Origin: Rhodospirillales bacterium
GTDB taxonomy: Bacteria; Pseudomonadota; Alphaproteobacteria; Bin95
Length of the DNA stretch: 64,000 bases
Assembly (NCBI GenBank): GCA_038143065.1
Contig: JAYQLI010000035.1
Span: forward strand, 416,001-480,000
Direction: 5' to 3'
Of the stretch, positions 2,427 through 48,676 are shown piece by piece. Each line of letters begins with the position of its first letter. Positions within the stretch are counted from its first letter, which is position 1. The position numbers were made by a program, and so were the translations under genes. The notes under the pieces were generated by a model, which was not told the DNA's origin, ran no database searches, and was given only the letters and a program-made list of their open reading frames with translations.

Positions 2427-3982
2427 CTAGATCTCTAGCTCTATCAAATATGGGCCATTGCTCGCCAGACCGTGCCGCAGCGCGCGAACAAGACTGTCGC
2501 AATCATTCGCGCGCGTTGCTTCAACCCCCAGGCTTTTGGACATATTCATCCAATCAATTGTAGGTCTATCTAAGCTTAACATATCTACTGCACGCGGACC
2601 TGGGTTCTGAACACCAACATTGGTAAGTTCACCTTGAAGAATTTTATACGCGCGGTTTGCAAATACGATGACTGTCACATCAAGATTTTCGCGGGCCATG
2701 GTCCACAAAGCCTGCACCGTGTACATCCCGCTACCGTCGCCCTCCAATGTGACGACTTTGCGGTCAGGCTGAGCTACCGCGGCGCCAATGGATACTGGTA
2801 ATGCATATCCAATGGATCCTCCCATCCCATTTAACCAGCAATGCGCAGGCGCATGAGAAGTTAAAGGGAAGAAGCCTCGACCAGAAGTTACAGACTCATC
2901 AACAACAATTGCATTTTCTGGAAGCGTTGCTCCAAGTACTGCCGCAATCTTATCAAGAGTTATCTCGCCAGTTGGCGCTTCTGGGCGATCAAGAGGGGCA
3001 ACATGGGCTGGGTCGAGGTTAATACAACCAAGCTCGATGGCTAGTGCCTCGAGAGCTCCTTCGAGGTCATCTTCTGCGCTAGCCAGATGGGTAATTTGGC
3101 AACCTTCTGCCGTGAGTACTGAGGGCTTATTGGGATAGGCAAAAAAAGCAACGGGCTGCTTGGCTCCACATAAGACCATATGCTGAGTGTCTTTGAGAAC
3201 ATTTCTTGCTAAGTCGACAACGTATGGAACGCGTTCTACCTTTACCCTGCCAGCCCCTCGTTGAAGGCGCGCGTTTTGACCCTCTGATAGTAGACGGCAC
3301 CCAGTCTTCGCAGCTATTCGACCAGCATATTCAAGAGCTTTCTCGCGAAGAGCGACACCGCCTAGCATGAGCATGCCTGCTTCGCCTGAGCTTAATAATG
3401 CCTTTGCGGCGGCAGTAACTTTCTCTCCAGATACTTTTGATCGTGGTGCTGGTGGCTTAGCAGTTACTGGGCTTCCCCTGCATTCCATGCTGTATCAGCA
3501 GGTAAGATTAAGGTAGCTATTTGACCAGGGGCAGTGCGAGCGGCTTCAACTGCTAATGCACCATCTGCTGCAATCCCCTCAGCTCTAGGGGATGATTTAA
3601 CCCAGTTGGACATGGGAGCAGCTACCGCTTCAATATCAGAAGTCAGGGGTGCATCATGTTCAAGGTGATATGTTGCATGATCTCCTACAACATTAACAAT
3701 GCCAGACTTAGCCTTTTTGGCGTTGTGTAAGTTTGCAAGGCCATTTGCTAATCCTGGGCCCAAATGAAGCAAAGTTGAGGCAGGACGGTCGGATAGTCTG
3801 TAATATCCATCTGCAGCGCCGGTCACTACACCTTCAAAAAGTCCTAGGACACAGCGCATACCCGGGACGCTGTCTAAGGCTGCAACAAAATGCATCTCGG
3901 AAGTGCCAGGATTTGTAAAACAGACGTCTACATCACTTGCAACTAGAGTGCGCACGAGGCTTTCAGCACCGTTCATGCTCAT
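2427..3982 (-). CDS. ThDP-dependent acetolactate synthase large subunit-like enzyme; frameshift near 3480
   Basis: N-terminal [10 protein letters not shown]...NPGTSEMH...HLGPGLANG and the C-terminal ThDP motif GDGS...N. Confidence 0.85.
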
Positions 3983-4088
3983 ACTTTAATTCCCATATTA
4001 GCTATTTTCCGAAAATAGACGTTTAAAGATTGAGGCTCTGAAATTAACACATATACTCTAAGCAACAATTAAATAAGAGGACAGTGGC

Positions 4089-5276
4089 ATGGATGGTGTC
4101 CTAAACATGGCTAGCTTTGAAGCATCTCCAGGAGCCCGTGCTGCACAAATTGCTCCCTTGATAGATCAACTTGCTAACGAGATTGAGGCTAAGCGCAGGC
4201 TTCCGCCAGAGCTTCTCAAAGCGCTGCACGAAAATGGTCTTTATAAAATGCTTCTTCCGAAACCTTTTGGTGGCGAAGAGGCATCGCCATTGGAGTTTAT
4301 GGACGCAATCGAGACACTTGCTCGCCACGACGCTAGCGTGGCTTGGTGCATTGGTCAGGCGAATGGTTGCGCTATGACGGCTGCTTATTTGGAGCCACGG
4401 ATTTCAGAAGAAATTTGGAAGCACGATTCAGCTGGTGTGTTGGCCTGGGGGCCAGGTAAGGCGGAAGCGCAAGTTGTTGAGGGCGGTTACAGGCTTTCAG
4501 CGTCATTGATGTTTGCAAGCGGTGGAAGGCATGCCTCTTGGTTAGGTTGCCACACTATCGTGAAAGATGAAGATGGAACGGTTATTAACGGTCCCGATGG
4601 AACTCCCGAAGTTCGCACCTTCTTAATGCCAGCGGCAAACATAGAAATGTTTGATGTTTGGGATGTAATGGGTTTACGAGGAACAGCTAGCGATGGCTAC
4701 AGCGTTAAAGATGTATTTGTGCCAAATGCGTATGTAACAGCGCGCGACAAGGCACACGCTCGTGTTTATCAGTCACCGCTATATATCTATCCGTCTATGA
4801 CGATTTTTGCTCAGGGCTTTGCCTCCGTAGCACTGGGGATAGCGCAAGGTGTGCTTGGTGATTTTCTGGCCTTTGCAGGAGCCAAAACGCCCCGCTTAGC
4901 TAAATCGACCATTTCTGAAAGTGCAGTAGCGCAAACGGAAACAGCTCTTGCCTCTGCGCGTATTATGGCTGCGCGAGCATTTCTTCGTCAGGAAGCTGAA
5001 GCAATCTGGGGCGAAGTCTGTTCTACAAATGAATTAACCATTGCTGCGCGCGCTCGAATTCGCTTGGCATCAACATATGCAATTCACGAGGCGAAAGCTG
5101 CAGTTGATAGCCTTTTCGATTTAGCTGGCGCTGATGCAATTTTTAAATCCAAACCATTTGAACGCCGTTTCCGTGATATTCATACTGTCACGCAGCAACT
5201 ACAAGGACGTAAGACGCATTTGCAGTCAGTAGGAGCTTGGATGATGGGGAAGGATGCGGATCTGTCAGTAATGTGA
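4089..5276 (+). CDS. Acyl-CoA dehydrogenase-fold flavin-dependent monooxygenase (HsaA/NcnH-like oxygenase component)
   Basis: RRLP..L, FASG, WDVMGLRGTASD and FERRFRDIH motifs. Confidence 0.8.
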   Translation: MDGVLNMASFEASPGARAAQIAPLIDQLANEIEAKRRLPPELLKALHENGLYKMLLPKPFGGEEASPLEFMDAIETLARHDASVAWCIGQANGCAMTAAYLEPRISEEIWKHDSAGVLAWGPGKAEAQVVEGGYRLSASLMFASGGRHASWLGCHTIVKDEDGTVINGPDGTPEVRTFLMPAANIEMFDVWDVMGLRGTASDGYSVKDVFVPNAYVTARDKAHARVYQSPLYIYPSMTIFAQGFASVALGIAQGVLGDFLAFAGAKTPRLAKSTISESAVAQTETALASARIMAARAFLRQEAEAIWGEVCSTNELTIAARARIRLASTYAIHEAKAAVDSLFDLAGADAIFKSKPFERRFRDIHTVTQQLQGRKTHLQSVGAWMMGKDADLSVM

Positions 5277-5304
5277 TTTAGCAAATGAATTAAGGGCGTT
5301 CGAT

Positions 5305-5794
5305 CTAAGGCATCCTGTGACGTTCGTTGTAGTCTTGTAGATAATCTAGATATCCCTGCAAGATAAATGCGGCAGCAGATGAGTCTATTACTTCCCCGCG
5401 CCGTTTTCTGCTCAAATCTGCTTCCAGTAATACGCGTCTCGCTGCATTTGTAGACATTCGCTCATCCCAAAACGCTAAGGGAAAGTCTCGGATTTTAGTC
5501 AGATTTCGCGCAAATGCTTTAGATGCTTGTGCCCTTGGGCCAGGCTTTCCGGACAGATCAAGTGGTAGTCCTATGATAAGGGCACCGACTTCAGCTTGAT
5601 CAAAAAAGTTCAAAGATCTGCGTGGCAAAGTCCTCAAATCCTTTGCCTCGTCTTAAAGTTTTTCTTGCGGTTGCAATGGTAAGGTTAGGATCCGAGATTG
5701 CTATACCAACAGTAGCGCTCCCAACATCCAAGCCGGCAATGCGTGATAATTGAGGAGTTGTCTCATATAGTTCATTAGGCTTGCAGATAGGCAT
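5305..5794 (-). CDS. ruvX: Holliday junction resolvase-like protein RuvX/YqgF; frameshift near 5615
   Basis: GLDVG..TVGIAISD, IIGLP, WDERMST and IDSSAAAFILQG motifs; divergent from gatC as in other Alphaproteobacteria. Confidence 0.9.
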
Positions 5795-5865
5795 ATGCGA
5801 TGCTAATCGCCCTGCGCCGAATGTGGCAAGAAAAGTATTAATTTTTAGGATGTGAGGGAGCTGAT

Positions 5866-7644: not shown

Positions 7645-9095
7645 GCACTTTAATAGAAGGTAGGGAAGGTCAGTGGGAACTGGTTATCGGTTTGGAGACC
7701 CATGCCCAGGTAACTTCTGAGGCTAAGCTTTTCTCTGGAGCTTCGGCTTCATTTGGAGCTAAGCCAAACAGTCATGTCAGCTTTTTAGATGCTGGGATGC
7801 CGGGCATGTTACCAGTTATAAATCAACGCTGTGTAGAAGCCGCAGTTATGACTGGTATTGCGCTCAATGCGCAAATTAATTTGGTCTCGATTTTTGACCG
7901 AAAGAATTATTTTTACCCAGATCTACCCCTTGGGTATCAGATTTCACAATTTTCCGATCCTATTGTGGGTAAAGGTTGGTTAGATATTGAGTTAGACGAA
8001 GGTTCTACTAAGCGGGTTGGAATTACTCGCCTCCATTTAGAGCAGGACGCAGGAAAGAGTCTGCACGATCAAGACCCATTTCGAACGTTTATTGATTTAA
8101 ACCGTGCTGGCGTAGGACTTATGGAAATTGTAACGGAGCCAGATATTCATTCTGCTGATGAGGCTGCTGCCTACGTAACAAAACTGCGCGAAATTCTTCG
8201 GTATTTAGGCGTTTGTGATGGCAATATGGAAGAGGGTTCACTGCGTTGTGATATAAATATTTCTGTCCGAAAACCTGGCGGCGCTTTGGGTACTCGAACC
8301 GAAATAAAAAACGTTAACTCAATTAGATTCATGCGTGAGGCCATTGCTTTTGAGGCCCGGAGACAGGTTGAGATCATCGAGGATGGGGGAAATATAGATC
8401 AAGAGACAAGGCTGTTTGATCCAGATCGCGGTGAGACTAGAGCTATGCGCTCAAAGGAAGATAGCCACGATTATAGATATTTTCCAGACCCTGATCTCCC
8501 TCCTCTTGTTCTCGATACAAATTACATCGCTGAAATGAAAAGCCAGATGCCCGAATTGCCAGACGCGAAACGTTCGCGTTTCGTAAATGAATTGGGGCTA
8601 ACTGAATATGATGCAAATGTAATAGCTGCGGATAAGAGTAGTGCTGCTTACTTTGAGAAGGCGGCAGAGAAGGCCGAGCCAAAGTTGATTGCCAATTGGA
8701 TCATGGGGGAAGTATTTGGGCGCTTAAATAAAGACGGCTTATCTATTGATGAGGCAAATGTTGCGCCTGAAGAGCTCGCAGCCTTAGTTATGATGATCCA
8801 GGATGGAAAAATTTCTGGGCGCCAGGCGAAAGAAGCGTTTGAAAAAATGTGGTCAGAGAGCATGGGTGCCCTCGAAGTAATTCAAGAACTTGGGTTGGAA
8901 CAAATATCTGACGATGGAGCGATAAGAGAATTGGTTGACGCTGTTATCTCTGCTAACCCAGATAAAGTGACGGAATTTAAAGCTGGTAAGACTCAGCTTT
9001 TAGGGTTCTTTGTTGGACAAGTCATGAAAGCCAGTAAAGGAAAGGCTAACCCAAAAGCGGTGAATGCAATTCTTCAGGAGAGTTTGGGGCAGTAA
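7641..9095 (+). CDS. gatB: Asp/Glu-tRNA amidotransferase subunit B
   Basis: [26 protein letters not shown] and [10 protein letters not shown] motifs. Confidence 0.97.
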
Positions 9096-9187
9096 AAATT
9101 TATCTGCGCTGTAGGTTGCTGAGGCGGGTATTCTTTATTTTTGGCTTATTGAAATATTAAATTTCCATCGATGCGAAAGTTCTTGGA

Positions 9188-9216
9188 TTGACAGTATCTC
9201 TATAGGCTCATATCAA
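9188..9216 (+). promoter_or_regulatory. Putative sigma70 promoter of the tRNA-Ser gene
   Basis: Perfect TTGACA at 9188-9193 and a weak -10-like TATCAA 17 bp downstream, shortly before the tRNA. Confidence 0.5.
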
Positions 9217-9234
9217 GCCGTTACAATTTATTAT

Positions 9235-9326
9235 GGACAGGTGGGTGAGTGGCTGAAACCAGTGGATTGCTAATCCGCCGTACCTTTAATTGGGTACCGA
9301 GGGTTCGAATCCCTCCCTGTCCGCCA
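9235..9326 (+). tRNA. tRNA-Ser (anticodon GCT)
   Basis: Acceptor stem GGACAGG/CCTGTCC, anticodon loop TTGCTAA, long variable arm, T-loop GGTTCGAATCC and encoded GCCA end. Confidence 0.97.
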
Positions 9327-9530
9327 CTCTTTCATTAGTTTTTCACTAATTCTCACGCTGCACTTTTAAAAATGCCGCGTACATCAATGCTTATTGCTGT
9401 TTTAATACAAGCTCTCAAGATAGAGTATACCTGTTTTTTAGCGATTTTGTATCCTAGGCTTTATCAACTTGTGGCGCCAGCGTTGTAAATCAAAGACAAT
9501 TATTCTACCCCGATCTATTAGGTTGCAGGA

Positions 9531-12500
9531 GTGACGCTGTTGTCTCTAACGACCCTTCAGGAAAAGTTCTTGTCTCGTGCGCTCGACGTGGAAGAAGATG
9601 CACTATCTGAACAAATTTTCGAGATAAGAGACTATCTTGAAAACGAGATTGTTGTTGTTGAGGGGACTTCCAACGACGAGGCATATGTGGTCGTTGAGGG
9701 CTCTGTGCGGGTTACCACATTTAATCACCAACAAAATCTATAGTCTTAGAATTAAAGGGAATTTCATCACTTGTTGGTGAAGAAGCTTGTTATTCATTTA
9801 ACAGCGCTCACAGAAACACGATTAAGGCAGCAGAAAAATTAAAAGTCGTCGTGATCCCAGGTTCCTTCATTAGAAAGTTATTTCGACAGAGAAGGAATTC
9901 TTCAAGTTTTATGTCTCAAGATGATCGTTCGGAGGCGCTTAGTAAGCTAAGTAACCAATCCTCAATTGGAAAGGATATTGCTGAACTTTTACAAAACGAA
10001 AGTGAGATCGAAACAAAATCCCTCAAACCAGGAGAAATTTTGTTCTCCGAAGGTGATAAGGCAGAGTTTTCTTGTTTGATTTTGGCTGGAAAAATAGAAG
10101 CACTAAAATGGGAAAAAAGTTCTCAAAAAATTGTTGGTAGTTCTGGTGTTGGGACCTTTGTAGGCGAGCTGGGTGTCCTGGAAAACGCACCCAGAGCGGC
10201 AACTGTACGCGCTATTGAGAACACCGACCTTTTGATAATACCTGCTGCAGTTGTTCGGAAAATTTGCACTGTATCAAAAGCACAAGCTCTGACTTCAGCT
10301 TTGAAGGCGGGTTATAATTTTTCAGGGCGAGGGACCACATTCAGTGTGGTCATTCCCGGAGAAACGGAAGACAGAGTTTCAACAACAATAAAGCTACCTG
10401 GCAATCGTCAGATAGCAATATCACGAACCCTTATGTCTGAGATGGTTGTCGCCCATGATGGGCAAGTTTCTGACAAAAAATTAATTTCTCATGATGGCAG
10501 ATATCGCATTGAGGTTCTTGATGGATTGCCAGTCCGTATTGAAGGGGCTCAAGACTGGCCTGATCTCCCAAAGCTTATGGATCGGATGCTTTCTGGAGAT
10601 GTTCTAGAGCCATGGCGATTGGTTGCATTTGAGGCACATGGAACGTTGATGTTTTCTGAAGAGGACGAAACATCAACCGATGCAGTAGTGTGTGCATGCA
10701 CGGGTGTCACCAAATCTGGAATTCGAAACCACGCACTTTCGGGCGTCACGACATTACAAGAAATTGGAGAAGCTTGCGGCGCTGGCAGTATTTGTGGCGG
10801 CTGTAGAAACAGGCTCTCGAATCTTTTAGGCCGTGAAAATTTTAATATGTGTCAGGCTAATGTTGAACCATTGAGTGAGGGTTCGGTTAAAGTAGTTCTT
10901 CGTTCAATACGTGACAAAATACATAAACCTCTTCCAGGACAACATGTATCCATTGATGGCCTTATCAAAGGCAATTGGGTTTCTAGGAGTTACACTGTCG
11001 TAGATGGCGACGAAAATCATATCGAGCTTGGCGTAAAGATTGAAGAACAGGGAACGTTTTCGCGCTGGCTATCAAAAACGGGTGATGGCTCACTGGTTAG
11101 GGTCTCTAACCCACAAGGTGAAGAAATTCCAAAGGCGGGGGAAGGGCTTCTATTTGTTGTTGCGGGGATAGGAGTTACGCCTGCTGTAGCTGCTCTAAGA
11201 AATCTAAGAAATCATAGAAACCTTCATATTTGTTACATTTTCCGTGGAGAAAAAACGGCCGCGTTTTTATCAGAACTAAAATTAGCAGAAGAAGAAGGAT
11301 TATCAGTCTCTCCCTTTGGGATTCTTCCATTCAAGGCCGTCCTGACCTCTCTGCTTTCGTTAATGCTGGAGTTGCTGACAGTAAAGCAAAAGAGGCAATA
11401 GTTTGTGGGCCTGTATCTTTTGCCGAGACAACGGCTGAGATATTAAGATCTGCGAACCTTAATGTTCGCACTGAGACTTTCACACACACTGGAATTGCAA
11501 ATGGGCCACCTCTCATTTGCCCTGGCTCTTGGCGCAATGAAACTAATCGAACCCCGCCTAAGGCGTGGAACCAGTACTCCATTGCTAAGCCAGGTTCTAA
11601 AAAAGATGAAGCAGAGGCATTTCTAAGGCAGTTTTTTTGTGAGAATGGGGTGGAAGCTGCCTTTGAAAGCAGGTGGAATGAGGTTCAGGAAGAGATCAAG
11701 GAAACTGGAACTTATTGGCAAAGCATTGAGGAATTAACCTTTTGGTGCAAAGCTTAGTTGGCGTAATGCCTCCCGCTGCATAGGCCGTCTCTATTGGTCA
11801 GGACTAAGAGTTAGGGACTTCCGGCATTTAACTCATCCGGATGATATGGCTCAAGAATTAATAAGACACCTTGAAATAGCTTATAATGATGGCGACCTCA
11901 GCCCTACAATGACCGTTTTCAATCCTGGCGCCCCTGGAGCGCCCGCGGTGAGAATTTGGAACCCTCAGCTAATGCGATATGCCGCATATCGCGATGAAAA
12001 TAACGAAATAATTGGAGACCCCGCTCAATTACATCTTACCAAAGAGATAGAAGCTCTTGGTTGGAACGGTCCAAAAACAAAGTTCGATATGCTGCCTATC
12101 GTAATTCATGTTAATGGACAAAAACCCCGTTATTATGAAATCCCAAATTATGAGCGTTATGAAATTGAGATCCGTCACCCGGAATATCCTGGGATTAATG
12201 AGCTTGGTCTAAAATGGTACGCGATCCCAGCGGTGTCTGATATGGCACTTGATTGTGGAGGAGTGCTTTATCAATGTGCCCCTTTTAATGGTTGGTACAT
12301 GGGGACCGAAATTGGTGCTCGGAATTTCACCGACGTAGAACGCTACAACCTTTCAGTAAAAATTGCTGAAAAAATGGGTCTTGAAACTAAACGTGAAAAT
12401 AATCTCTGGCGGGATAAGGCCTTAACAGCAATGACAGAGGCAGTGTTAGATAGCTTTGAGGCAAAAGGAATAAAAAATAACCGATCATCACTCTGCAGCG

Positions 12501-12686
12501 CTCGAGTTTCTTCAATTTTGTGAAAATGAGCAGGACCAGACCCGTGAAGTGTATGGAGATTGGACTTGGCTAGTTCCCCCAATTGGGGGGTCAGCAACAC
12601 CTCTGTTTTTAGATGGTTGGAAGCACGAAGAATTAAAACCCGCTCTCAGGATGCAGGAACCAGATTATCCATTGCCAGACCCCTAA
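9531..12686 (+). CDS. nos: Multidomain nitric oxide synthase: 2x cNMP-binding - BFD-like [2Fe-2S] - FNR-type FAD/NAD(P)H reductase - NOS oxygenase (about 4 apparent frameshifts near 9738, 11302, 11742, 12475)
   Basis: CNB2 motif FVGELGVLENAPRAATV. BFD motif CAC...CGGC. FNR motifs PGQH...RSYT, AGIGVTP and VCGP. NOS heme ligand WRNASRCIGR from 11759, in frame with ORF 11846. Also RIWNPQLMRYA, PFNGWYMGTEIGARNF, and after the last shift DHHSA and DWTWLVPP, ending at TAA 12684-12686. Confidence 0.88.
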
Positions 12687-12897
12687 CCCTTGGAGTTGTT
12701 CTCAAAAAAACTTGAGCTACGTGGTTCGCGGCATTTATAGCGCTCCCGGCTTTGCTGGCCGAGGACTGTGGATACTTAGGTCTCTAAAGAGCATGCGTGA
12801 ATTAAATTCTATGCTAAACAAGAGTGATTATCGGTGGAACAAGAAAAAGCTTTTGCTTGAGAAATTTACCTCAGGAAAAACACCTTGGAGATATGAA

Positions 12898-13644
12898 ATG
12901 GCATTTTCACCTAGAAAAGTTTTGAAATTTATTGGTCTACCGTTGCTAATCTCCGGAGTTAGCTTTTCTTCAGCACAGGCAAAAAATGATGGTGGCTATG
13001 TCGCTTCAATTGAGGCTGGATACGCGTACACCAAGGTCGATGGAAAAGATCAAACCTTTCCTTTAGACGGCGAATTAAACGGCTTGGATATTGATATTGA
13101 AATTAGATCTTTTGAAAATGTGGTGTTGGAGTTTGGTTATCGAAGAGATGAAGGCGAGTTCACAAGAACTGACGGACTCAAGACTGACTATAAAAGAGAT
13201 ATATTCAATATAGATGCCGGGTATAATTTTGCTCCCAAAGAGGCAACTAACGAAATTATTCCATTCATAGGTCTTACCTTAATAGATGCAAAAAACAGAG
13301 TAACTGTTGGTGGTGTTAACATCTTATCTACCCAAAATGCTCAAAAAGGACACTTAGGCCTTAGAGTTGGAAAGCGATGGGAAAAGGCATATGCATCGAT
13401 TTCAGGTGGGTGGGAATTAACCATTGATGAAGATCAAGAGGTGCCAACCGTTGGAATATCTCAAAAGGGTGAGGTGGAGAATTCATTTTTTCTAAAGGCT
13501 AAGATGTCCTATCAACTTACTGATATGCTGAGTATCGGGATCAAGCCTGAGTTCAGATATGATGATTTTGATCAAAAAAATGGTGCACGAAATGTGACCC
13601 AGGAAGAATATTCAGTGACAGTATTTACTGGGCTAAATTTTTAA
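12898..13644 (+). CDS. Putative outer-membrane beta-barrel protein
   Basis: Signal peptide ending SSAQA, alternating aromatic/Gly beta-strand pattern, C-terminal Phe (FTGLNF), GGAG RBS before the ATG at 12898. Confidence 0.7.
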   Translation: MAFSPRKVLKFIGLPLLISGVSFSSAQAKNDGGYVASIEAGYAYTKVDGKDQTFPLDGELNGLDIDIEIRSFENVVLEFGYRRDEGEFTRTDGLKTDYKRDIFNIDAGYNFAPKEATNEIIPFIGLTLIDAKNRVTVGGVNILSTQNAQKGHLGLRVGKRWEKAYASISGGWELTIDEDQEVPTVGISQKGEVENSFFLKAKMSYQLTDMLSIGIKPEFRYDDFDQKNGARNVTQEEYSVTVFTGLNF

Positions 13645-19428: not shown

Positions 19429-21023
19429 GCGCCAGCTAAGATTGCAGCGGAAATTTTTCAGCAATCATAATGGTGGGCGCGTTCGTATTTCCTGAAATAA
19501 CGGTTGGCATAACGGACGCATCAACCACACGAAGCCCAGCAATACCTCGAACTTTGCAGGTAAGATCTACAACGGCCATGGGATCAGAGTCTGCTCCCAT
19601 GCGACACGAGCTTGCTGGATGCCAATTTGAAGCTCCTATTTCTTTTGCATAAGCTAAAAACTCATCATCGGTTTTGACATCTGCGCCTGGTGTCATTTCG
19701 TAGCCAAAGAATGGTTTAATAGCCTCTGTTTCCATCAACTTACGGCTAAAACGCATTGCTGTTACGGCTGACTTTTCATCTTCAGGGGTACCCAATACGT
19801 TTGTTAGAATGGACGGTGATTGCTTAGGGTTTGATGACGTGGCATGCACGGATCCACGTGCTTCTGGCCGAAGTAAAGTTGGTCCTAATGTTACACCTGG
19901 TTCTTTATCTAAAGTTCGGTCACGAATTGAAACATAAGTTCCCGGAAAGAATTGAAGTTGTACATCTGGTGTTGCAATTTCAGGTCGTGTTTTAAAGAAA
20001 GCATTCACTGGATTAGTGGGATTTGTAAGAACACCTGTTCTTGAAAAAATATATCTAGCCCCTTTAAAGAGCCCTGAGCCCATGAACTCTTTCATTGTAG
20101 GTATTCAGGTTTCCTTTTTTAGGCGCCAACGCATCCGAAAAATTTGATGGTCATGCAGATTTTTCCCAACGCCTGTAAGAGAATGTAATGGTGTTATGCC
20201 GGCAGACTTAATTATCTGTGGATCGCCAATGCCGGATAGCTCCAGAAGGTGTGGGGAGCCATATGCACCACATGAAACTATAACCTCACGGCTGGCATGT
20301 TGAACGCCCTTAATTTCATAAACTAAACCGGTCGCTTGTTTATCGTTAAGGATAACGTGATGTGCGAGTGCGCCAGTAGCTACTTGAAGATTTGGCCTTT
20401 TTGAGCTGGCTTTAAAAACGCTGCCGCGGTCGAATTCTCTTTCCTTTGGAAATTGTAACTTGAGCATAGCCAATTCCTTCTTGCTCTGCCCCGTTAAAAT
20501 CGGGATTTTCTGGCAAGCCTAATTCCTTGCCAGCAGCGATCATAGCCTTTGAGAATTCTGTTTGCTCGGTAAGGTCTGATACTGTGAGAGGGCCGCCGAT
20601 ACCATGATAGTCATCAGCTCCGCGCTCGTTATTTTCTGCTTTCTTAAAATAAGGTAAGACATCTTCATAAGCCCAGCCTCGGCATCCAAGCTGGGCCCAA
20701 TGATCGTAATCCGCAGCCTGACCGCGCATATAGATCATCCCGTTGATTGATGAAGAGCCTCCTAGAGTTTTCCCGCGTGGCAGGAAGTCTTTTCTTCCAT
20801 TGAGGTTAGGCTCAGGTGCACTCTCAAATAGCCAATTCACATTTGGATTTTGGAGTGTCTTTCCAAATCCAAGAGGCGTATGGATCCAAAAATTTTTATC
20901 TTTGGGCCCAGCCTCTACCAGTAGAACGTTATTGGCTGGATTTTCTGAAAGGCGATTTGCTAATACACAGCCAGCTGAACCCGCACCGACAATAATAAAA
21001 TCAAATTCTTCAGCCAATTTCAC
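19425..21023 (-). CDS. GMC oxidoreductase (choline dehydrogenase-like); several frameshifts
   Basis: GAGSAG, RGKTLGGSSSINGM, GVGKNLHDH and LRVVDASVMP..GNTNAP motifs. Confidence 0.9.
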
Positions 21024-21030
21024 CAGCTTT

Positions 21031-21903
21031 TCATGCTGCGATGACCGGCCCATCACCAACAATGGTCGTTCGGTGCATTACACGCCGTTCCATTGGGTCA
21101 TGAGGGGTGACGAGATGCATAGTGCATCGGTTGTCCCAGAGCACCATATCATCTGTTGTCCAAGAATGACGGTAAACGAAGCGATCTTGCTCTGCGAAAG
21201 CAGTTAATTCTTCGATTAAATCCGAAGCTTCTGCGTTATCCATACCTTCAATTTCGTCATTGTATATAGGACTGATAAATAGTGACTTTTTCTGAGTAAT
21301 TGGGTGCCGTCTGACCATGGGCTGCCAGACAGGGGGCATAGCTTCGCGCTCTTCTGACGATGCTTTTTTTGCATGCGCTATACGACTTAGTTTGTCGAAA
21401 TCATGGCAAGCACTACGCCCCTCAACTTTTTCTTTTAAATGGGGCGGGAGTTCCGAATAGACCGCATACATGATTATAAAACAGGTTACCCCACCAGTTC
21501 TTGAGATTTCTATCCCATGTAAAAGGGAGCCCATTGCTGGGTTTTGACGATAGCTTGAGTCTGTATGCCATTTTCTCGCACTACCCAGCTGCTGCATAGT
21601 GGGATGTTGAGGCATCATAAGATTTCCGTCGTCATCTACATTGGAAACACGGAAGATTTCAGGGGCTTTACGTGATTTAATAATGTTTTGATGAAATACC
21701 TCGGGTTCACCAAACGCACGTGTTGCCGCAACATGTTCTTCATCAGTTACCGGTTGGTCTGGGAAGACTAATACAAGGTTATCCATCCAAATATGATTTA
21801 ATTCTTCCATGACGTCAGCAGACATCGGCTGACGAAAATCCACACCGCGCACTTTAGCGCCAATTAATGGATGCAATTTTTCAACGTCTAAGGTCATTTC
21901 CAA
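21031..21903 (-). CDS. TauD/TfdA Fe(II)/2-oxoglutarate dioxygenase
   Basis: WHTD, RRHP and WDNRCTMH...R.MHR motifs. Confidence 0.9.
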   Translation of the reverse strand: MEMTLDVEKLHPLIGAKVRGVDFRQPMSADVMEELNHIWMDNLVLVFPDQPVTDEEHVAATRAFGEPEVFHQNIIKSRKAPEIFRVSNVDDDGNLMMPQHPTMQQLGSARKWHTDSSYRQNPAMGSLLHGIEISRTGGVTCFIIMYAVYSELPPHLKEKVEGRSACHDFDKLSRIAHAKKASSEEREAMPPVWQPMVRRHPITQKKSLFISPIYNDEIEGMDNAEASDLIEELTAFAEQDRFVYRHSWTTDDMVLWDNRCTMHLVTPHDPMERRVMHRTTIVGDGPVIAA

Positions 21904-30588: not shown

Positions 30589-31041
30589 ATGCTGCGCTTA
30601 TCAAAAATGACCGATTATGCGGTTGTAGTTATGGGGCAATTAGCTTCCAGACCTGATTGCCGTCAGTCCGCTGCTAGTATAGCTGAAAATACTGGTTTAC
30701 CGACCGCTACAGTCGGGCAAGTACTTAAAGCTCTCAGCTTTTCAAACCTAGTTGATGGCACCCGCGGCGCATACGGTGGCTATTTATTGTCTCGCTCTCC
30801 TTCTGCCATTTCAGTTGCAGAGATTGTGGTGGCAATGGATGGGCCCGTTGCGATTACCGCTTGTGTGGATGGAGCGGACGACCCCTGCAATGTTCAGGCT
30901 GGATGTTTGCTTCGTGGTAGTTGGGATGCCGTGAATTCAGCAATTGAAGGTGCTCTGAAGGGTGTAACTCTTGAAGAAATGCTAGCTCCCTTATTTAGAT
31001 TTTCTGTATCCAAATCCTCTGAATTGGAGGTCCGCTCATGA
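30589..31041 (+). CDS. SUF system Rrf2/IscR-like Fe-S regulator
   Basis: [14 protein letters not shown] and three Cys (C-x7-C-x5-C); heads the SUF operon. Confidence 0.9.
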
Positions 31042-32499
31042 GTGCTACAGCAGAAACTATTGCTGATGTCGAGAAGTTAGGCGATCGTTACAAATACGGC
31101 TTCGTTACTGAGATTGAATCAGAAACTGCTCCTAAGGGTCTGTCTGAGGACGTAATTCGTTTTATTTCGGCCAAGAAGGAAGAGCCGGCGTGGCTCCTGG
31201 AATGGCGGCTGCAAGCCTATGCAAAATGGCAAAAAATGAATGAGCCTAATTGGGCTAAATTGGGTTACCCTCCGATAGATTACCAAGACTCTTATTATTA
31301 CTCGGCACCAAAACAAAAAGATGCCCCCAAAAGCCTAGATGAGGTTGATCCAGAGTTACTAGAAACATACGAAAAACTTGGCATTCCACTAAAAGAACAG
31401 GAAATGCTGGCAGGGGTGAGAAACGTTGCCGTTGATGCAGTATTCGATAGTGTCTCGGTTGCTACTACCTTCAAAGCAAAATTAGCCGAAGCTGGTGTCA
31501 TTTTTTGTTCGATATCTGAAGCGGTTCGCGAATATCCAGACCTGGTCAAAAAGTACCTCGGCTCAGTAGTGCCGCAGGATGACAATTTTTTTGCCGCCTT
31601 GAATTGTGCAGTCTACACCGATGGCTCATTTGTATACGTACCCAAGGGTGTGAAATGTCCGATGGAACTCTCTACCTATTTTCGAATAAATCGCTGAAAA
31701 TACGGGGCAGTTTGAGCGCACATTAATTATAGCGGATGAGGGGTCTTACGTCAGTTACTTGGAAGGGTGTACAGCTCCGATGCGGGATGAAAATCAGCTG
31801 CACGCGGCTGTTGTTGAGCTTGTTGCGCACAAGGATGCGGAAATCAAATATTCGACTGTTCTTAATTGGTATGCGGGTGATGAAAATGGCAAAGGCGGGA
31901 TTTTCATTTTTGTGACGAAAAGAGCCCTCTGTCAGGGCGACCGTTCAAAGGTCATGTGGACCCAGGTGGAAACGGGTTCTGCAATTACATGGAAGTACCC
32001 GAGCTGCGTTCTGCAGGGGGACGATAGCCAAGGTGAGTTCTATTCGGTTGCAATCGCGAACAACATGCAACAGGCCGATACTGGAACTAAAATGATCCAT
32101 ATGGGCAAACGTACGCGCTCTCGCATTATCTCCAAGGGGATTTCTGCTGGTCGCGCTCAGAATAGTTATCGTGGGCTGGTGAAAATGTTGCCTTCTGCTG
32201 ACAAAGGCAGAAATTTTACCCAGTGTGACTCACTCCTTATAGGCGATAAATGCGGCGCGCATACGTTCCCATACATTGAGAGTCAGAACCGGTCTGCGCG
32301 AGTTGAGCACGAGGCAACTACGTCAAAAATTAGTGAAGACCAGTTATTTTATTGTCGGCAGCGTGGCATTGGTGAGGAAGAAGCCGTTGCGCTAGTCGTT
32401 AATGGTTTTTGTCGAGAAGTATTGCAGCAACTTCCAATGGAGTTTGCGGTTGAGGCGCAAAAGCTTGTTGGAATTAGTCTTGAAGGTTCGGTGGGTTAA
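31038..32499 (+). CDS. sufB: Fe-S cluster assembly scaffold SufB; frameshift near 31692
   Basis: [40 protein letters not shown] and EHEATTSKI motifs. Confidence 0.97.
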
Positions 32500-40603: not shown

Positions 40604-43600
40604 TCAGTTTGGAAATTCGGGAGGTGGCGATGGTGGTGAGGGCTCGTCTTGGGTACTCGTAGGGGCCGGTAAAACATCTCGCAAAATACCAGGGGCAAAA
40701 GTGCTTAGGGTACTGATTGTAAATTCTGGATCTTCCAATGGGCCAAATGCTCTGTAATTTGTGGCAAAAATTCCTTCTTCTCCTGTTCCTGTAACTATTT
40801 GGCGAAGAAGGGGAAGTTGATCAAAAAGAGGTAAGCTATCGATTGTTCGAGTGATTACATAGGCTGGAGATATTGCTCCCTCAATTTCAAAAGTGTCGTT
40901 GCGAATATCAATTTCACCTTTTGCAGAGATTGCTAATGCGTTTCCTTCAGCTCTTCCACTTTTAATTTCTATAAGTCCCAACTTGTATGTACCGTCGAGC
41001 TCCAGGTGGTCAAAACGTATTGCGTCTCCGCCATCAATTATTGAAAGGAGAAGGGTGCCTGTTAATCCTCCAACATTTCGAAGCTCTGATAGTAAGCTGG
41101 TGTCATCGTCTCCAATTAGTTTTCGGATTGCTGTTTTTTTAAAGTCAAATTCATCTGCTTTGAAATTTATTTTTAAATTCGCGTTTTCATTTTCCTCTAT
41201 AGTGAGGAGTGCAGTTCCCGCCTCCGCGGCCGAAGTTATTCCCATGGCATCAAGCAATCGACCAAAGTTACTTGCACTGATTAGGACTGCTGGAGGATTG
41301 CTCGGCAGTGAACTTGCTTTAATAACGCCTCCTTTATAATAGGCTTCAGCATCAAGAAATTTAGGCAGTCTAGGGTCATCCAAGAAAACTACATGCACGT
41401 CATCGATTGAAAAGTTTTCAGAGACCCTCACGCGATCAAGATCAATTTCAATCGTGTGGTCGCCTTCAAAGTTTTCAGGTTTTTTTTCTCTTGATCGATT
41501 TGTTTCTTCATAGAGATCACTGGCCGGTAATCGAAACTTTTTCCCCAAATTCTCGTGCGCTCTTTACCATCTGATGATGCTATAAAATTCATCTTAAGAT
41601 TATGGCCGAGGCCCACTAGCCGGCTAATCTCTGCAACTTTTATTGAGTTATTTTCTTTTTGAAATTCTACTCGTGCAGATAAATCGAAGTCTTGCGAAGA
41701 AAGTTGAATATCTTCCAGTTTCTCAAGTTTACCATTGTTCAGCATCAAAACAGCACGGAAATTACCAGGGACCTTGGGCTCTTTATGATAGCCAAGTTTT
41801 TCTATGGAAACTTCGGAAGGTTCGATATCCGCTTCAATTTTAATCTCCATACGATCATCTTTTGCAGCAATGACATTAAAATTTGTGGGACTTAGGCCCT
41901 TAACCATATCTTTTAAAATGGATGCTTGATCGCTAAGGGCACTCCTAACTTTTTCGTCGAGTAACCAAGTGCCATTAAAAAGACTTTTCTGATTCTTTGA
42001 GTCAAAAGGTATAAAACCGTCAAACTTGATCGGGGCTTCTAATAGTTGGCCTTTCCCCGCTAGTCGCAGGTCATCCTGATTTACTGAAATATTTAATATT
42101 TCAGCAGTTAAATCCCAACCGTTTATGCTTCTAGGAAAAAGACCATTCGATACCTCACCATCCGCAGAAATCGCGACATCACTTAAGGTAAGGTCCTTTT
42201 TTAATGGGAAAGAAATTTTAAGTTCGCCCTTTACCAAGCCATCGGTTTCTTCGGCTTTAACCCCTAACCAACTTGCATATCGAAGAGGATCCGCTTCCAG
42301 AACATGTAATAAATCTGGTATGGGCCCAGTAATATTGCCAACTATGGACAATGCGCTGTTTGCACTTCCGAGTTCAGTAAATTTTAAGTCTATTTTATTG
42401 GAGGTCTGCTCGCTACTGGTGGCCGCATTTACGTGAAGGTCTAGCGTATCACCTTCAAAATACCCGGTGCCACTTACTTCTGTAGCTACAGGCATCGGCT
42501 CCCAGTAACGTACAGTGAGGCTTTCTGCCGAAAAGCTACCTGAAACCTTCGCCGGCTGGTTGTTTGTTTTGCTGATACTGAAGTTACTGTTTGTAACTTT
42601 GCCTAAAGATAGATTTTCTTTCACCCAGAGACGGCCGCCACTTGCTAGGTTCTGAGGCCATATTTTGGATAATTTTTCTACAGGAAAACTTCCGGTTTGA
42701 ATATTTCCCAAGAAACCAAAAAGATTTCCATTTTTTCCAAGTTTTAGATTGGCTTCACCCTGAGCATCTATGCCAGAAATAATTGATTTTACGTCGTAAA
42801 CTAAAATTGAATTAGAATTTGCGTCGAATTGGAGCTTGGCTTCAGTTTCGGTGAATTCGATTTTTTCACTAAATTCTTTTGAATTCGTATATTGGCCATA
42901 TGCTTGAATACGGCTACGTGCAGTCGTCAATTTGTTTTCTGAGATACCGAAATTGAAGTCAGCTTTGATATTTCCACCCAGACCACTTAACTGTTGATTG
43001 TCGACGTCTAGAATGTTGAGAAAATATTGAATATTGCCGCTTTTGACTTGGCCAATAATATCGTAGGTACCTGATTTTTGGGCACTGTTGTTTTGGATGA
43101 TATTAGCTTCCAGAACAACATCAGAAAGTTCTTTGCCCAATTTGAGGCTTTTTACAACTATCTGCCCGGCTCCAAAATCAGCTGATATTTCAGCTGAAGC
43201 ATCACCAACTGCTATTTTTTCTTCCCTCAGGCAGGAATAGATGAGTACTTAGTGTTGAGATGGATGCATTGGCGGTTGAGCCGTTCAAATCCTGGTCAAA
43301 GTCAAATCGCACATCACCTGAGATTTTTCCCGTGAATTCTCCAAGTTTATAATCGAGGAGACGACCTACTTGTGAAACAGAACCTAAGTCATTGTTGTTT
43401 AGACTAACGGTAAAAAAGCCGCCTTTTCCTTTGGATAGAGACACAGTGGCTTTCAGAGGACCTGAAGGAATATCTAGATTTGGGACAATATCTGTCCAAA
43501 ACACTATGTGTTCGGGTGTTAGCGTGAGTCCTAAATTTGTTTTTGCAGAGAATAATTCATCGTTTGTAGTCTCATCAACGACTGTTAACGATGCTTCTTC

Positions 43601-47545: not shown

Positions 47546-47697
47546 TCAGGTTTTCTAATGGTTTTAGTTTAGAAGGTGCATAAAAATACAATCTTCGCGT
47601 GAAAATTAGGTTAGACAAAGATTGGCCATATAAGGTCGATCGAGTTCATAATAGAGAAAAATACATTTCTGTGCGCGAGGTAATGGGAGAATGGATC

Positions 47698-48676
47698 ATG
47701 CAATTAAAGACTTCGCATATGAACGGTGATTTCGGCATTGTAATCCATGATGTAACTCGAGCAGATCTTAATGATGCAGATTTTCAATCTGGGGCTTTCG
47801 ACTTGTGGACTAGGCACGGTGGGTTATTGGCGGTGCGTGGTAACGACCTGGTTAACACATCACCACAAGAGTTGATGGCGTGGTCTGAGGTTTTTGGGTC
47901 CATTGAGTATGGGAATTTTGTTGCTCGAGAAGACAAGATGGTGGAAGGATTGCCAATTTTGCGGATTGGTAATGTCCGTGACGAGGGGGAAGTTAAAGTC
48001 TTCTCTTGCCCGCGTGCCGCAACTTAAAACCGACGCGGACATTCGGTACAATCCAGAGACACGTCGTCCGGTTTGGCATACTGATTCCACCTTTCGCCAA
48101 AGTCCGCCAATTGGATCAATTTTTCACTGCAAAATTGCTCCTGGATCTGGTGGTGAAACATTATTCGCCAACATGCGCGCAGCGTACAACGACCTCGACG
48201 ATGCAACTCGCGTGAAGCTAGACGGTTTAGAGGCAGTATGTTCGTTGGCGCACCATGACAAGAAAATCAACAAATATTCGCCGGATTATCCAATTCTGAC
48301 ACCTGAGCAGCGGGCTGCTAATCCGCCAAATAGGGTGCCGCTGGTTCTTAGGCATCCTGTAAGCGGGGAAAAAGCTCTATATGGCCTAAATAGCTCTACT
48401 TGCGCCATTCTTCCAAAGGATGAAGAAATTACTGCAGAAACCCTTGATATCTGCGACCTTGAGGGCGATGAGCATGAATCTGTTCAGATCTTGCGCGGGT
48501 TACTTCCTACAATAACTGGTCCAGAATACACGGTGAAATGGTCCTGGCAGCCTGGAGATATCGTTGCTTGGGACAACCGGTGTACTATCCATTCAGCCAC
48601 TGGATATGACTATGAAAACCAAAGCCGAGAAATGTGGCGCCTTACGCTGCTAGATCGCGCACAGGCTGAGAGCTAA
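47698..48676 (+). CDS. TauD/TfdA dioxygenase; frameshift near 47985
   Basis: [20 protein letters not shown] and WDNRCTIH...REMWR motifs. Confidence 0.88.

Follow-up and report, generated by a model that had tools for sequence, protein, structure and literature searches.

The bacterial nitric oxide synthases (NOS) that come closest to the protein considered here are those that carry their own reductase. For the NOS of Sorangium cellulosum (scNOS; Agapie et al. 2009, cited by both PMC4436077 and PMC3701330), the citing accounts place a BFD-like [2Fe-2S] and FAD/NAD(P)H reductase on the N-terminal side and the NOS oxygenase (NOSox) on the C-terminal side. SiliNOS of Silicibacter sp. TrichCH4B is described in PMC4436077 as having the same architecture, with 2Fe-2S, FAD, and NAD(P)H sites followed by NOSox, and that account also reports that scNOS and the oxygenase domain of SiliNOS make NO. 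As for what governs such enzymes, the same account gives the physiological inputs of bacterial NOS as unknown.

The gene described here occupies positions 9531..12686 on the plus strand of the 64-kb window, that is, the whole stretch of DNA that was analysed, and its host is a marine alphaproteobacterium. As assembled, it consists of five plus-strand ORF pieces, at 9531-9743 (frame 0), 9851-11401 (frame 2), 11230-11757 (frame 1), 11846-12523 (frame 2), and 12549-12686 (frame 0), which are colinear with an intact protein of 1051 aa. Read in the frame of its orthologue, the gene has 1051 codons and encodes, in order, two cyclic-nucleotide-binding (CNB) domains, a beta-rich adaptor, a BFD-like [2Fe-2S] domain, an FNR-like FAD/NAD(P)H domain, a flexible hinge, and NOSox. 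By Pfam, cNMP_binding falls on pieces 1 and 2, the second of which also carries Fer2_BFD and FAD_binding_6; NO_synthase is spread over the last three, with profile positions 7-56 on piece 3, 88-297 on piece 4, and 323-360 on piece 5. These placements, with the intact orthologue, bear out the order CNB-CNB-linker-BFD-FNR-NOSox that an earlier note had read from the DNA, and the same order confirms its view of the core as Sorangium (scNOS)-like, with the reductase before the oxygenase. Of the Pfam families that the note expected, cNMP_binding (twice), Fer2_BFD, FAD_binding_6, and NO_synthase were found; NAD_binding_1 was absent at E ≤ 0.01 from both the window copy and the orthologue. Both the GIGVTP and the CGP motif occur in the protein, and NAD_binding_1 is matched by relatives.

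The note had further taken the pieces for a single gene split by one-base shifts. In fact, nucleotide alignment to the intact gene of a congener, genome G008 (3156 nt, 87% nucleotide identity to the window copy), shows length differences at exactly four sites, of one base each. The orthologue in G008 occupies the same place, adjoining gatB/gatA. The window was also compared with near-identical Logan contigs of four runs from four metagenome studies; the best share of words among these runs is 0.85, and they need not be the source sample. At break 1 (9738), in a C run, the window has one C, the contigs of all four runs have one C more behind 9737, and G008 is one base longer. Break 2 (11297..11298) reads GG in the window, with one G more in the contigs of four of four runs and, again, one base more in G008. 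The TTTT of the window at break 3 (11740..11743) is one T shorter in all four runs' contigs and in G008, and the AAAAAA at break 4 (12472..12477) is one A shorter in G008 and in the three covering runs (3/3, run X9 having no coverage there). All four breaks, numbered along the plus strand, are thus one-base differences in homopolymer length, and at each covered break the frame is open in the Logan contigs (4/4, 4/4, 4/4, and 3/3). The shifts that the note saw are present in the assembly but do not extend to the species at large, as G008 and the four metagenome studies are without them. In G008, in the contigs of the four studies, and in intact members of the protein's cluster, the product is one uninterrupted polypeptide, reductase first; in the window copy as assembled, the reductase-NOS chain is interrupted by the four frame breaks.

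The first sensor domain, CNB-A (9627..9883, plus strand, residues ~33-118, placed by Pfam), spans break 1. Its fragment in the window scores 21.3 bits, under the PF00027 cut-off, and this is only because break 1 cuts the domain; the G008 orthologue has two PF00027 stretches at 100.2 bits. The phosphate-binding cassette of CNB-A is degenerate in the clade, with a His at the family's Arg column and an Arg one place on. CNB-B (10016..10273, plus strand, residues 163-248) is matched by Pfam at E 2e-17 with 63.4 bits, and a match in the strain's own genome falls at the same coordinates. Its cassette is canonical, GE...PRAATV, and aligns letter for letter with that of the PKA regulatory subunit 3of1. 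This PKA-like cassette, with its ribose-contacting Glu and phosphate-contacting Arg, is kept in 19 of 19 clade proteins; outside the clade, 42 of 95 family members have a CNB-B without the Glu or the Arg. Across the family, Glu and Arg are found together in at least one of the two CNB sites in 111 of 114 members and in both sites in 62. The closest solved sequence relatives of residues 1-260 are the tandem CNB domains of PKA regulatory subunits (for example, 3of1 and 1rgs; E 7e-14 to 8e-9).

The adaptor (10316..10669, plus strand, residues 263-380) comprises eight beta strands and two helices, is conserved, and has no Pfam family; alignment shows it to be common to EF-hand-type NOS proteins. 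Its AF2 model (pLDDT 88.8, pTM 0.79) gave no match in the PDB at E ≤ 0.001 with Foldseek and only Z scores below 7 with VIA-align, among them a weak likeness to the C-terminal domain of ferredoxin reductases of the BphA4/putidaredoxin-reductase type (Z 5.3-6.9), which we treat as a weak lead. The BFD-like [2Fe-2S] domain (10685..10828, plus strand, residues 386-433; Fer2_BFD 1.3e-9, 38.7 bits) is N-terminal to the flavin domain, and its four Cys ligands, C388, C390, C422, and C425, are invariant in 114/114. The FNR-like FAD/NAD(P)H domain (10841..11478, plus strand, residues 438-650) spans break 2 and matches FAD_binding_6 above the cut-off; its RxYT, GIGxTP, and CG columns vary little or not at all among the 114 relatives. 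The hinge that follows (11479..11598, plus strand, residues 651-690) is poorly conserved, with 63% amino-acid identity to G008, and is modelled with low confidence at residues 653-659.

The oxygenase domain (11599..12683, plus strand, residues 691-1051) spans breaks 3 and 4 and was located by Pfam on the pieces, where PF02898 scores 28.8, 291.9, and 30.1 bits against a cut-off of 22.7. A six-frame search of the strain's own genome recovered NOS profile positions 52-297 in one stretch, and the orthologue's domain covers profile positions 7-360 at 474 bits (E 3.5e-142). The motifs WRNASRCIGR, FNGWYMGTEIG, and DWTWLVPP, given as intact in the note, were found in the translations of the window; the haem-thiolate C750, the substrate Glu E927, and the Trp pair W1011/W1013 are present there and invariant in 114 of 114 relatives. 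The cofactor and catalytic residues of the protein are all present. The AF2 model of the orthologue's NOSox, for which the G008 protein was used and not the broken window copy, superposes on B. subtilis NOS with a TM of 0.96-0.97 and an rmsd of 1.0-1.1 Å over 357-358 columns at 44% identity. The full-length AF2 model reaches a pTM of 0.57, so domain packing in it is not established.

The note did not know this architecture as a described system. This stands for the literature, where our search, with most subscription journals outside its reach, found no paper joining a bacterial NOS or P450 reductase to a CNB domain and no assay of any CNB-type NOS member. It does not stand for the databases: CNB plus NOS occurs in 118 of the 120 homologues listed, spread over many phyla, and JGI's automatic name for the design is NOS/ferredoxin-NADP reductase/CRP-like cAMP-binding protein. 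Polyangium sp. (locus L035) is a carrier in culture. A tree of the reductase-NOS core sets the CNB and EF-hand types on opposite sides of one well-supported branch (SH-aLRT 98); where the CNB type has its sensor, ahead of a shared adaptor, the sister clade has a pair of EF-hands. The CNB-adaptor-BFD-FNR cassette is also found on its own, as a separate protein, and joined to P450s and to a desaturase; because it recurs with such other partners, the sensor belongs to the electron donor. One relative of 705 aa (L032) is without any sensor. Two loci were left outside the analysis, L023, whose called ORF has no Pfam family, probably through a wrong choice of frame, and which enters none of the counts, and L022. 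A tblastn search of 72,556 plasmids gave 51 records, none covering 80% of the query, and the matches listed are NOSox-only or FNR-only partial matches alone.

The surroundings of the gene were surveyed at 15 loci (13 CNB-type loci plus L025 and L024; 60 proteins), taking on either flank the two closest ORFs that reach 100 aa. No neighbour family recurs across them, except between two near-identical Sericytochromatia loci, so the operon context gives no function. One of the 13 CNB-type loci is preceded, 68 nt upstream on its own strand, by a gene for a GAF-GAF-PAS-cyclase; in the other 12, none of these nearest ORFs is a cyclase. The note's statement that the window holds neither a cyclase nor an H-NOX proved correct. 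The strain's own genome has five to six class III cyclase domains, all elsewhere than the window; a search of it for NO receivers turned up no H-NOX and, for FIST, only a match below threshold, so none is known there. A genomic island at tRNA-Ser was considered as the setting of the gene and rejected, no tRNA-end direct repeat and no integrase-like match having been found among the flanking ORFs scanned. Six metatranscriptome runs contain 0.06-0.14 of the sampled words and are uninformative on expression. The genome includes a 2.86-Mb contig, which was counted in favour of the reading of the breaks as assembly errors.

As a whole, the findings are in our judgement best explained, with a chance moderately better than even, by one self-sufficient NOS with a CNB sensor, a candidate for gating by cyclic nucleotides, whose breaks are most likely errors. 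By analogy with the family chemistry of scNOS, electrons would pass from NAD(P)H to FAD, then to the [2Fe-2S] cluster, and then to the haem, and L-arginine would be turned into NO and citrulline. Cyclic-nucleotide gating of this electron supply is a plausible prediction. In the specific form that we propose, to which we assign roughly equal chances of being right and wrong, a cyclic nucleotide at CNB-B, probably cAMP, would reposition the sensor-adaptor unit and so open or close electron delivery from reductase to haem. NO output would then track a cAMP/cGMP signal, in a manner comparable to the gating of the animal NOS reductase by Ca/calmodulin. Counted for sensing are the CNB-B cassette, the Glu and Arg kept in 111 of 114 members, the EF-hand sister clade, the portable cassette, the cyclases of the genome, and the cyclase-adjacent locus; the points against the proposed explanation include the degenerate CNB-A, the CNB-B losses in 42 of 95, the unconserved neighbours, the lack of a known NO receiver, and the full-length pTM of 0.57. 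It is tempting to go further, to a generalization that we hold tentatively and at somewhat less than even chances: CNB-CNB-adaptor-BFD-FNR may be a second-messenger-operated electron valve plugged into haem and di-iron oxygenases in many phyla. NO synthesis would here answer directly to cAMP (or cGMP), in an order opposite to the animal one, which runs from NO to cGMP, and in parallel with the EF-hand sister clade, in which it would be an output of Ca2+ without calmodulin.

These proposals have to be weighed against other readings, beginning with that of the gene itself. Slipped-strand changes in four homopolymers could recently have inactivated it in this strain alone, the species otherwise keeping the gene. 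Some features suit such a private pseudogene: the breaks, four in ~3.1 kb, are denser than the window average and exceed most of the window, in an assembly that is the strain's only one; the gene is accessory, carried by only one of 40 relatives' genomes searched; and ~10 substitutions separate the window from all four metagenome runs, which makes it a distinct strain. Yet four other genes within the same 64 kb, those for SufB (31038-32499), a GMC oxidoreductase, TauD, and YhdP, are split likewise, and every event is a homopolymer-length difference. Read in frame, moreover, the window copy has no stop codons and no other decay, dN/dS against G008 is 0.15 overall (0.05-0.28 per domain), and intact proteins of 1051 aa from its 90% cluster (P0003 and P0129) match the in-frame parts at ~96-98% identity; JGI and ENA are the sources of intact members of this cluster. 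Given the homopolymer sites, the intact relatives, the split SufB and three other genes, and the dN/dS of 0.15, we regard the four breaks as most probably consensus or assembly errors rather than decay, and recent inactivation as improbable. The practical message for this genome is that homopolymer indels in the assembly break real genes.

If the gene is whole, the enzyme could still be an active self-sufficient NOS whose CNB domains do not bind cAMP or cGMP and instead give the reductase a scaffold, structural or dimerising, or bind another small ligand. CNB-fold domains in other proteins do bind ligands other than cyclic nucleotides, and such sensors would serve as a precedent; the decay of CNB-A in the clade and of CNB-B in those 42 members outside it, the sensorless 705-aa relative, and the 12 of 13 CNB-type loci without an adjacent cyclase point the same way. 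On the other hand, retention of Glu and Arg in at least one site in nearly every member is what selection for nucleotide binding would be expected to leave, the key positions of the clade's CNB-B cassette are the same as those in the PKA regulatory subunit, both CNB domains have a dN/dS against G008 (0.12-0.13) as low as that of NOSox, and the sister clade has another recognised second-messenger sensor at the same place. We consider a scaffold or foreign-ligand role rather unlikely. A further doubt, to which we give similarly little credence, concerns the output: NO may not be a signal at all and may protect against oxidative stress or antibiotics, or feed a nitration or nitrogen-recycling reaction, with the sensor only matching output to metabolic state. 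The lack of H-NOX and of an above-threshold FIST match in the genome would fit this, as would a CNB-type locus that adjoins a flavohaemoglobin gene (L033) and the protective roles that PMC4436077 gives as proposed for Bacillus and Staphylococcus NOS. However, a dedicated second-messenger input suggests a regulated rather than a housekeeping output, the window flanks contain no P450 or nitration partner, and a non-CNB relative (L024) has a hybrid kinase and a FIST protein of the NosP type for neighbours. In the account that PMC4436077 gives of the one marine alphaproteobacterium to have been studied, NOS-derived NO acts via H-NOX on c-di-GMP and biofilm.

If the preferred reading of a cyclic-nucleotide-gated NOS is right, a NOS with a built-in cyclic-nucleotide sensor would offer a direct and testable input, and the two best-known small-molecule signalling systems would be linked in an order opposite to that in animals. 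Because P450s and a desaturase draw on the same sensor-reductase cassette, a positive result would define a general second-messenger gating of oxygenases, as well as a ligand-switchable redox partner of use to biocatalysis. The EF-hand sister clade, for its part, suggests that bacteria may have brought NOS under Ca2+ control without calmodulin.

Among known systems, scNOS shares with the present protein, as far as its published descriptions go, a single polypeptide with a BFD-like [2Fe-2S] and FAD/NAD(P)H reductase followed by NOSox. Whether the Sorangium N-terminus is also of the CNB type, a question that the note had raised, is answered in the negative: in the NOS of Sorangium sp. So ce388, the sensor position is taken by a pair of EF-hands (EF-hand_7 at residues 182-238), in line with what PMC7400543 notes for Sorangium, whereas the present protein has two CNB domains, and Pfam finds no EF-hand ahead of the adaptor in the window protein or its orthologue. 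The adaptor upstream of BFD is common to both, and our protein and that of Sorangium sp. are 37% identical over residues 322-1043. SiliNOS, as described in PMC4436077, resembles our protein in its marine alphaproteobacterial host and scNOS architecture, and we count as a further likeness that its NO output is set off by an outside cue; its organism has an H-NOX partner in that account, whereas none was found in this genome. On the sensor side, the PKA regulatory subunits (3of1, 1rgs) likewise have two CNB domains in tandem and the same CNB-B cassette, and Bd1971 (6hq2), a cAMP-sensing EAL enzyme in the description of PMC6717892, provides an earlier case of a bacterial enzyme with a fused CNB domain. 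The output in those proteins is a kinase or phosphodiesterase, whereas here it is an electron-transfer chain, and CNB-A is degenerate in our clade. Animal NOS is alike in that a second-messenger sensor, Ca2+/calmodulin, switches electron transfer from reductase to haem, and the oxygenase fold and catalytic residues are common to both (38-40% identity). The N-terminal Zn/pterin hook of the animal enzymes lies outside the match, the modelled domain fitting the short bacterial form best (TM 0.96 versus 0.82-0.87). The animal reductase is of the FMN/FAD P450-reductase type and C-terminal, in contrast to the N-terminal Fe-S/FAD reductase found here, and the animal sensor is a separate protein, whereas the present one is built in and of the CNB type.

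The gene at window 9531–12686 (+) is read as five open pieces on that strand, at 9531–9743, 9851–11401, 11230–11757, 11846–12523, and 12549–12686, in frames 0, 2, 1, 2, and 0, respectively. Pfam analysis of the window ORFs places a cyclic-nucleotide-binding (CNB) match in each of pieces 1 and 2, the second of which also has Fer2_BFD and FAD_binding_6, and positions 7–56, 88–297, and 323–360 of the NO_synthase profile follow one another on pieces 3, 4, and 5. This is the sole NOS locus of the genome (4.63 Mb, 52 contigs searched). Since only one of the 40 relatives' genomes searched, the congener G008, has a NOS, the gene fits the description of an accessory gene. The G008 frame is unbroken over 1051 codons and, as it does in the window, lies immediately beside gatB and gatA. 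Both genes span 3156 nt and are 87% identical in nucleotide alignment. They show exactly four length differences of one base each; at two of these the window lacks a base and at two it has one more, and each falls in a homopolymer run of the window sequence.

Four public metagenome runs, each from a different study (marine, estuary, and seawater; sampled-word shares 0.85, 0.80, 0.69, and 0.61; the source sample is not necessarily among them), were compared with window 9331–12886 through their Logan contigs. Every contig covering a break has the run length that restores the frame. On the plus strand, these are an extra C behind 9737 at the C of 9738 and an extra G behind 11296 at the GG of 11297–98 (4/4 runs each), one base fewer at 11740 in the TTTT of 11740–43 (4/4), and one base fewer at 12472 in the AAAAAA of 12472–77 (3/3 covering runs; run X9 has no cover there). 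Furthermore, the fragments of the window gene itself, of 225 and 496 aa (100% identical to the window; on an NCBI contig of 2.86 Mb), share their 90% cluster with intact proteins of 1051 aa (JGI) and of 1050 and 1048 aa (ENA). Because the metagenome contigs restore the frame and intact proteins share this cluster, the species has a whole NOS gene. The proposal of the earlier note, that one gene had been split by single-base shifts, is thus borne out by the G008 alignment, the metagenome contigs, and the intact cluster members, and the haem, substrate, and pterin-site motifs that it named are present in the window translations.

Are the breaks errors of the assembly, or has this strain privately inactivated its NOS gene? 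The breaks are dense, four in 3.1 kb, and some ten substitutions set the window apart from all four metagenome runs, which need not include the source sample; inactivation would accommodate these observations. Against it, other genes within the same 64 kb are likewise split. SufB is cut in two (31038–31697 and 31759–32499, +), a GMC oxidoreductase is in three pieces (19436–21062, −), and YhdP forms adjacent ORFs (40604–43140, −), the pieces in each case matching consecutive parts of one Pfam profile; TauD is split as well (47599–48676, +), its piece 47894–48676 being without profile positions 1–83. Because these four are each divided into adjacent ORFs, indels seem to be spread over many genes of the assembly, and stops also occur inside some own-genome matches elsewhere. 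In addition, each of the four NOS breaks amounts to a change in homopolymer length, the frames carry no further damage, and the in-frame parts are about 96–98% identical to intact cluster members. The dN/dS ratio against G008 is low, at 0.15 for the whole gene and 0.05–0.28 per domain (gatB, 0.05). We consider assembly error the probable origin of the frame breaks and a strain-private inactivation unlikely.

As for the start of the gene (window 9527–9542), AGGA abuts the GTG listed at 9531. The real start may instead be a TTG at 9540, 8 nt after AGGAG (9527–9531), which would yield 1048 residues, as many as several ENA cluster members have. A tRNA-Ser(GCU) gene (9235–9326, +) separates gatB from the NOS gene, 205 nt ahead of the NOS start and about 140 nt beyond gatB. 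In three of five NOS-less congeners (G001, G003, and G006), it is on the same contig about 3.3–3.5 kb beyond gatB; it is on another contig in G007 and has no match in G002. Since the gatB–tRNA-Ser spacing varies in this way, the local gene order differs among congeners; no att-like repeat was found at the tRNA. Downstream, 26 nt past the NOS stop, comes a gene (12712–13644, +) whose 310-aa product matches an OMP beta-barrel profile below threshold (26.2 bits vs. a cut-off of 28.7); the G008 contig ends before it.

Residues are numbered here as in P0001, the intact G008 protein. Pfam finds in it cNMP_binding twice, Fer2_BFD, FAD_binding_6, and NO_synthase (3.5e-142), confirming the order CNB-CNB-BFD-FNR-NOS oxygenase (NOSox) previously read from the window. 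In the alignment of 114 near-full-length relatives on which conservation was scored, the BFD cysteines C388, C390, C422, and C425 are invariant, as are R486, Y488, T489, G546, I547, G548, T550, C626, and G627 of the reductase and W744, R745, C750, E927, W1011, and W1013 of the NOS domain. The domain order, cofactor ligands, and catalytic residues are all in place, and the frame is intact in the population. A full-length AlphaFold2 model built on this alignment has a mean pLDDT of 88.8; since its pTM is only 0.57, the single domains are modelled confidently and their mutual packing is not. The modelled NOS domain superposes on B. subtilis NOS with TM 0.96–0.97 and rmsd 1.0–1.1 Å (44% identity), whereas animal haem domains fit it less well (TM 0.82–0.87). 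The hinge, residues 651–690, is poorly conserved and of low model confidence.

Between the second CNB domain (CNB-B) and the BFD domain is a conserved adaptor of about 118 residues (263–380) without a Pfam family. Modelled alone, it has eight strands and two helices (pLDDT 88.8, pTM 0.79), and a Foldseek search against the PDB found no significant fold match. VIA-align gave only weak matches, and in 8 of the first 23 rows the matched structure is the C-terminal domain of a ferredoxin reductase of BphA4/putidaredoxin-reductase type (Z 5.2–6.9, rmsd 2.6–3.2 Å, 73–82 residues). Because the Z values are so low, this modelled likeness is no more than a weak lead; should it hold, the adaptor may serve to dock a ferredoxin.

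Among solved structures, those nearest in sequence to residues 1–260 are the tandem-CNB regulatory subunits of PKA (3of1, E 7e-14), followed by PKG, Epac, and Bd1971, a bacterial EAL enzyme that senses cAMP. The PKA subunits share with the NOS protein the tandem CNB arrangement and the phosphate-binding cassette of CNB-B (GE, then PRAATV), which aligns position for position. The 19 rows closest to P0001 (51–97% identity) all keep the Glu and Arg of this cassette in CNB-B and do so in 11 of 19 in CNB-A, which is degenerate; in the window's own clade, His occupies the family's CNB-A Arg column, with Arg one place on. The other 95 rows keep the pair in 53 (CNB-B) and 90 (CNB-A). Overall, it is kept in at least one site in 111/114 and in both in 62/114. 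Such complementary retention would be expected under selection for nucleotide binding at one or more working sites. Thr or Ser after the CNB Arg accompanies cGMP preference. Since the residue after the CNB-B Arg is Ala, as in the PKA subunits compared, our guess is that cAMP would be the ligand in the window's clade.

The sensor and reductase are not confined to NOS. When residues 1–690 were searched against 1.84 billion representatives, 202 clusters matched at E ≤ 1e-30, most of the best 150 across roughly residues 30–655. A Pfam scan of 32 clusters sampled from those 150 gave fusions to NOS (8), to cytochrome P450 (9), and to a fatty-acid desaturase (1), with the cassette standing alone, at 660–703 aa, in three. 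Seven proteins of 837–916 aa (P0187, P0190, P0197, P0209, P0185, P0210, and P0215) have a C-terminal extension of about 170–250 residues without a Pfam family, two (P0184 and P0208) carry about 500 such residues ahead of the cassette, one of 1056 aa has no further Pfam match, and one has three CNB stretches. Because the cassette recurs alone and fused to P450s and a desaturase, its distribution argues that the CNB domains, whatever their role, would act on the electron donor.

The earlier note had suggested looking for the same architecture in other genomes. Among 80 loci kept from species genomes, the match in 19 extends from the first CNB domain through the whole of NOSox, and these full-length loci bear titles spread over phyla: Sericytochromatia, Planctomycetaceae, Pirellulales, Opitutae, Opitutaceae, Verrucomicrobiaceae, Prosthecobacter, Polyangiaceae, Polyangium sp. 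6x1 (a cultured strain), Terriglobia, Gammaproteobacteria, Pseudomonadales, Henriciella, and Actinomycetota. NO_synthase and cNMP_binding occur together in 118 of the best 120 of 200 homologous proteins matched; of the remaining two, one is a 705-aa partial and the other, P0121, an EF-hand form. The design is already recognised by annotation pipelines, since automatic source names spell out the combination (JGI: 'nitric oxide synthase oxygenase domain/subunit/ferredoxin-NADP reductase/CRP-like cAMP-binding protein').

The Sorangium N-terminus, for which a CNB domain had also been considered, is of another kind. The 1157-aa protein of Sorangium sp. So ce388 matches from residue 322 onward only, and Pfam places an EF-hand pair at 182–241 where the CNB domains would be. 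EF-hands likewise replace CNB in a Flavobacteriaceae protein and in P0121; the 705-aa relative starts straight at the BFD domain, and a Bacteroidota relative has an N-terminus without Pfam assignment. In a quick tree of the BFD-to-NOSox core (27 selected rows), a branch with SH-aLRT 98 parts the 22 CNB-type rows from the five others; three rows have long branches, and one CNB row, L027, is weakly placed. Given this branch, the two sensor types mark two sister clades, and the scattering of CNB-clade organisms across phyla points to horizontal spread.

The genome itself (97.6% complete) encodes class III cyclase domains, five of them above the cut-off with E ≤ 1e-18 and a sixth that is short; no H-NOX match was found in it. 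Its only FIST-like match is sub-threshold (contig C35, 1324901–1325427) and divided between two neighbouring frames, open over 161 and 235 aa; here too an indel may have split a gene. Neighbour genes were not found to be conserved across the loci compared. An adjoining cyclase occurs in 1 of 13 CNB-type loci, a Terriglobia MAG (L018), where a GAF-GAF-PAS-class III cyclase gene (3510–5837, +) ends 68 nt upstream on the same strand. In an Actinomycetota MAG (L033), a flavohaemoglobin with globin, FAD, and NAD domains (9208–10470, −) stands tail to tail with the CNB-NOS gene, followed by a histidine kinase. In a Bacteroidota MAG (L024), a reductase-NOS of 1212 aa, whose first ~470 residues have no Pfam match, is closely followed downstream by a FIST N+C protein, which we take to be a NosP-type NO sensor, and a hybrid histidine kinase (8638–11316, −). 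These neighbours are suggestive as single cases.

How might such a protein work? By analogy with S. cellulosum NOS (scNOS), electrons would pass from NAD(P)H through FAD and the [2Fe-2S] cluster to haem, with NO and citrulline as output; PMC4436077 and PMC3701330 describe this path and the oxidation of L-arginine with O2. On this analogy, enzyme function is likely. Binding of cAMP or cGMP to CNB-B would shift the CNB-adaptor unit, freeing or blocking the path of the BFD domain between flavin and haem, with either sign conceivable; to such gating we give an even chance.

Self-sufficient NOS proteins with an Fe-S/flavin reductase are an established kind. scNOS has been characterised (PMC4436077, PMC3701330), and the oxygenase domain of SiliNOS, from the marine alphaproteobacterium Silicibacter sp. 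TrichCH4B, has been assayed (PMC4436077); in the accessible parts of these papers, the N-terminus is described only as a reductase. A figure legend in PMC7400543 notes the EF-hands of Sorangium and Microcoleus NOS, and no mention of a CNB form was found in the accessible part of that paper. No paper joining a bacterial NOS or P450 reductase with a CNB domain was found in full-text searches of a literature with few subscription journals. The CNB-type design is real, widespread, and database-listed. What this copy adds is a marine clade within the Alphaproteobacteria, the complementary retention of sites between CNB-A and CNB-B, and the core-tree evidence for the CNB and EF-hand forms as sister clades. 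The protein shares its reductase-NOSox core with the scNOS type and differs in its sensor, an EF-hand pair in Sorangium and two CNB domains here. In animal NOS, Ca/calmodulin controls the FMN domain, to which the putative control of the BFD domain by CNB would be a parallel.
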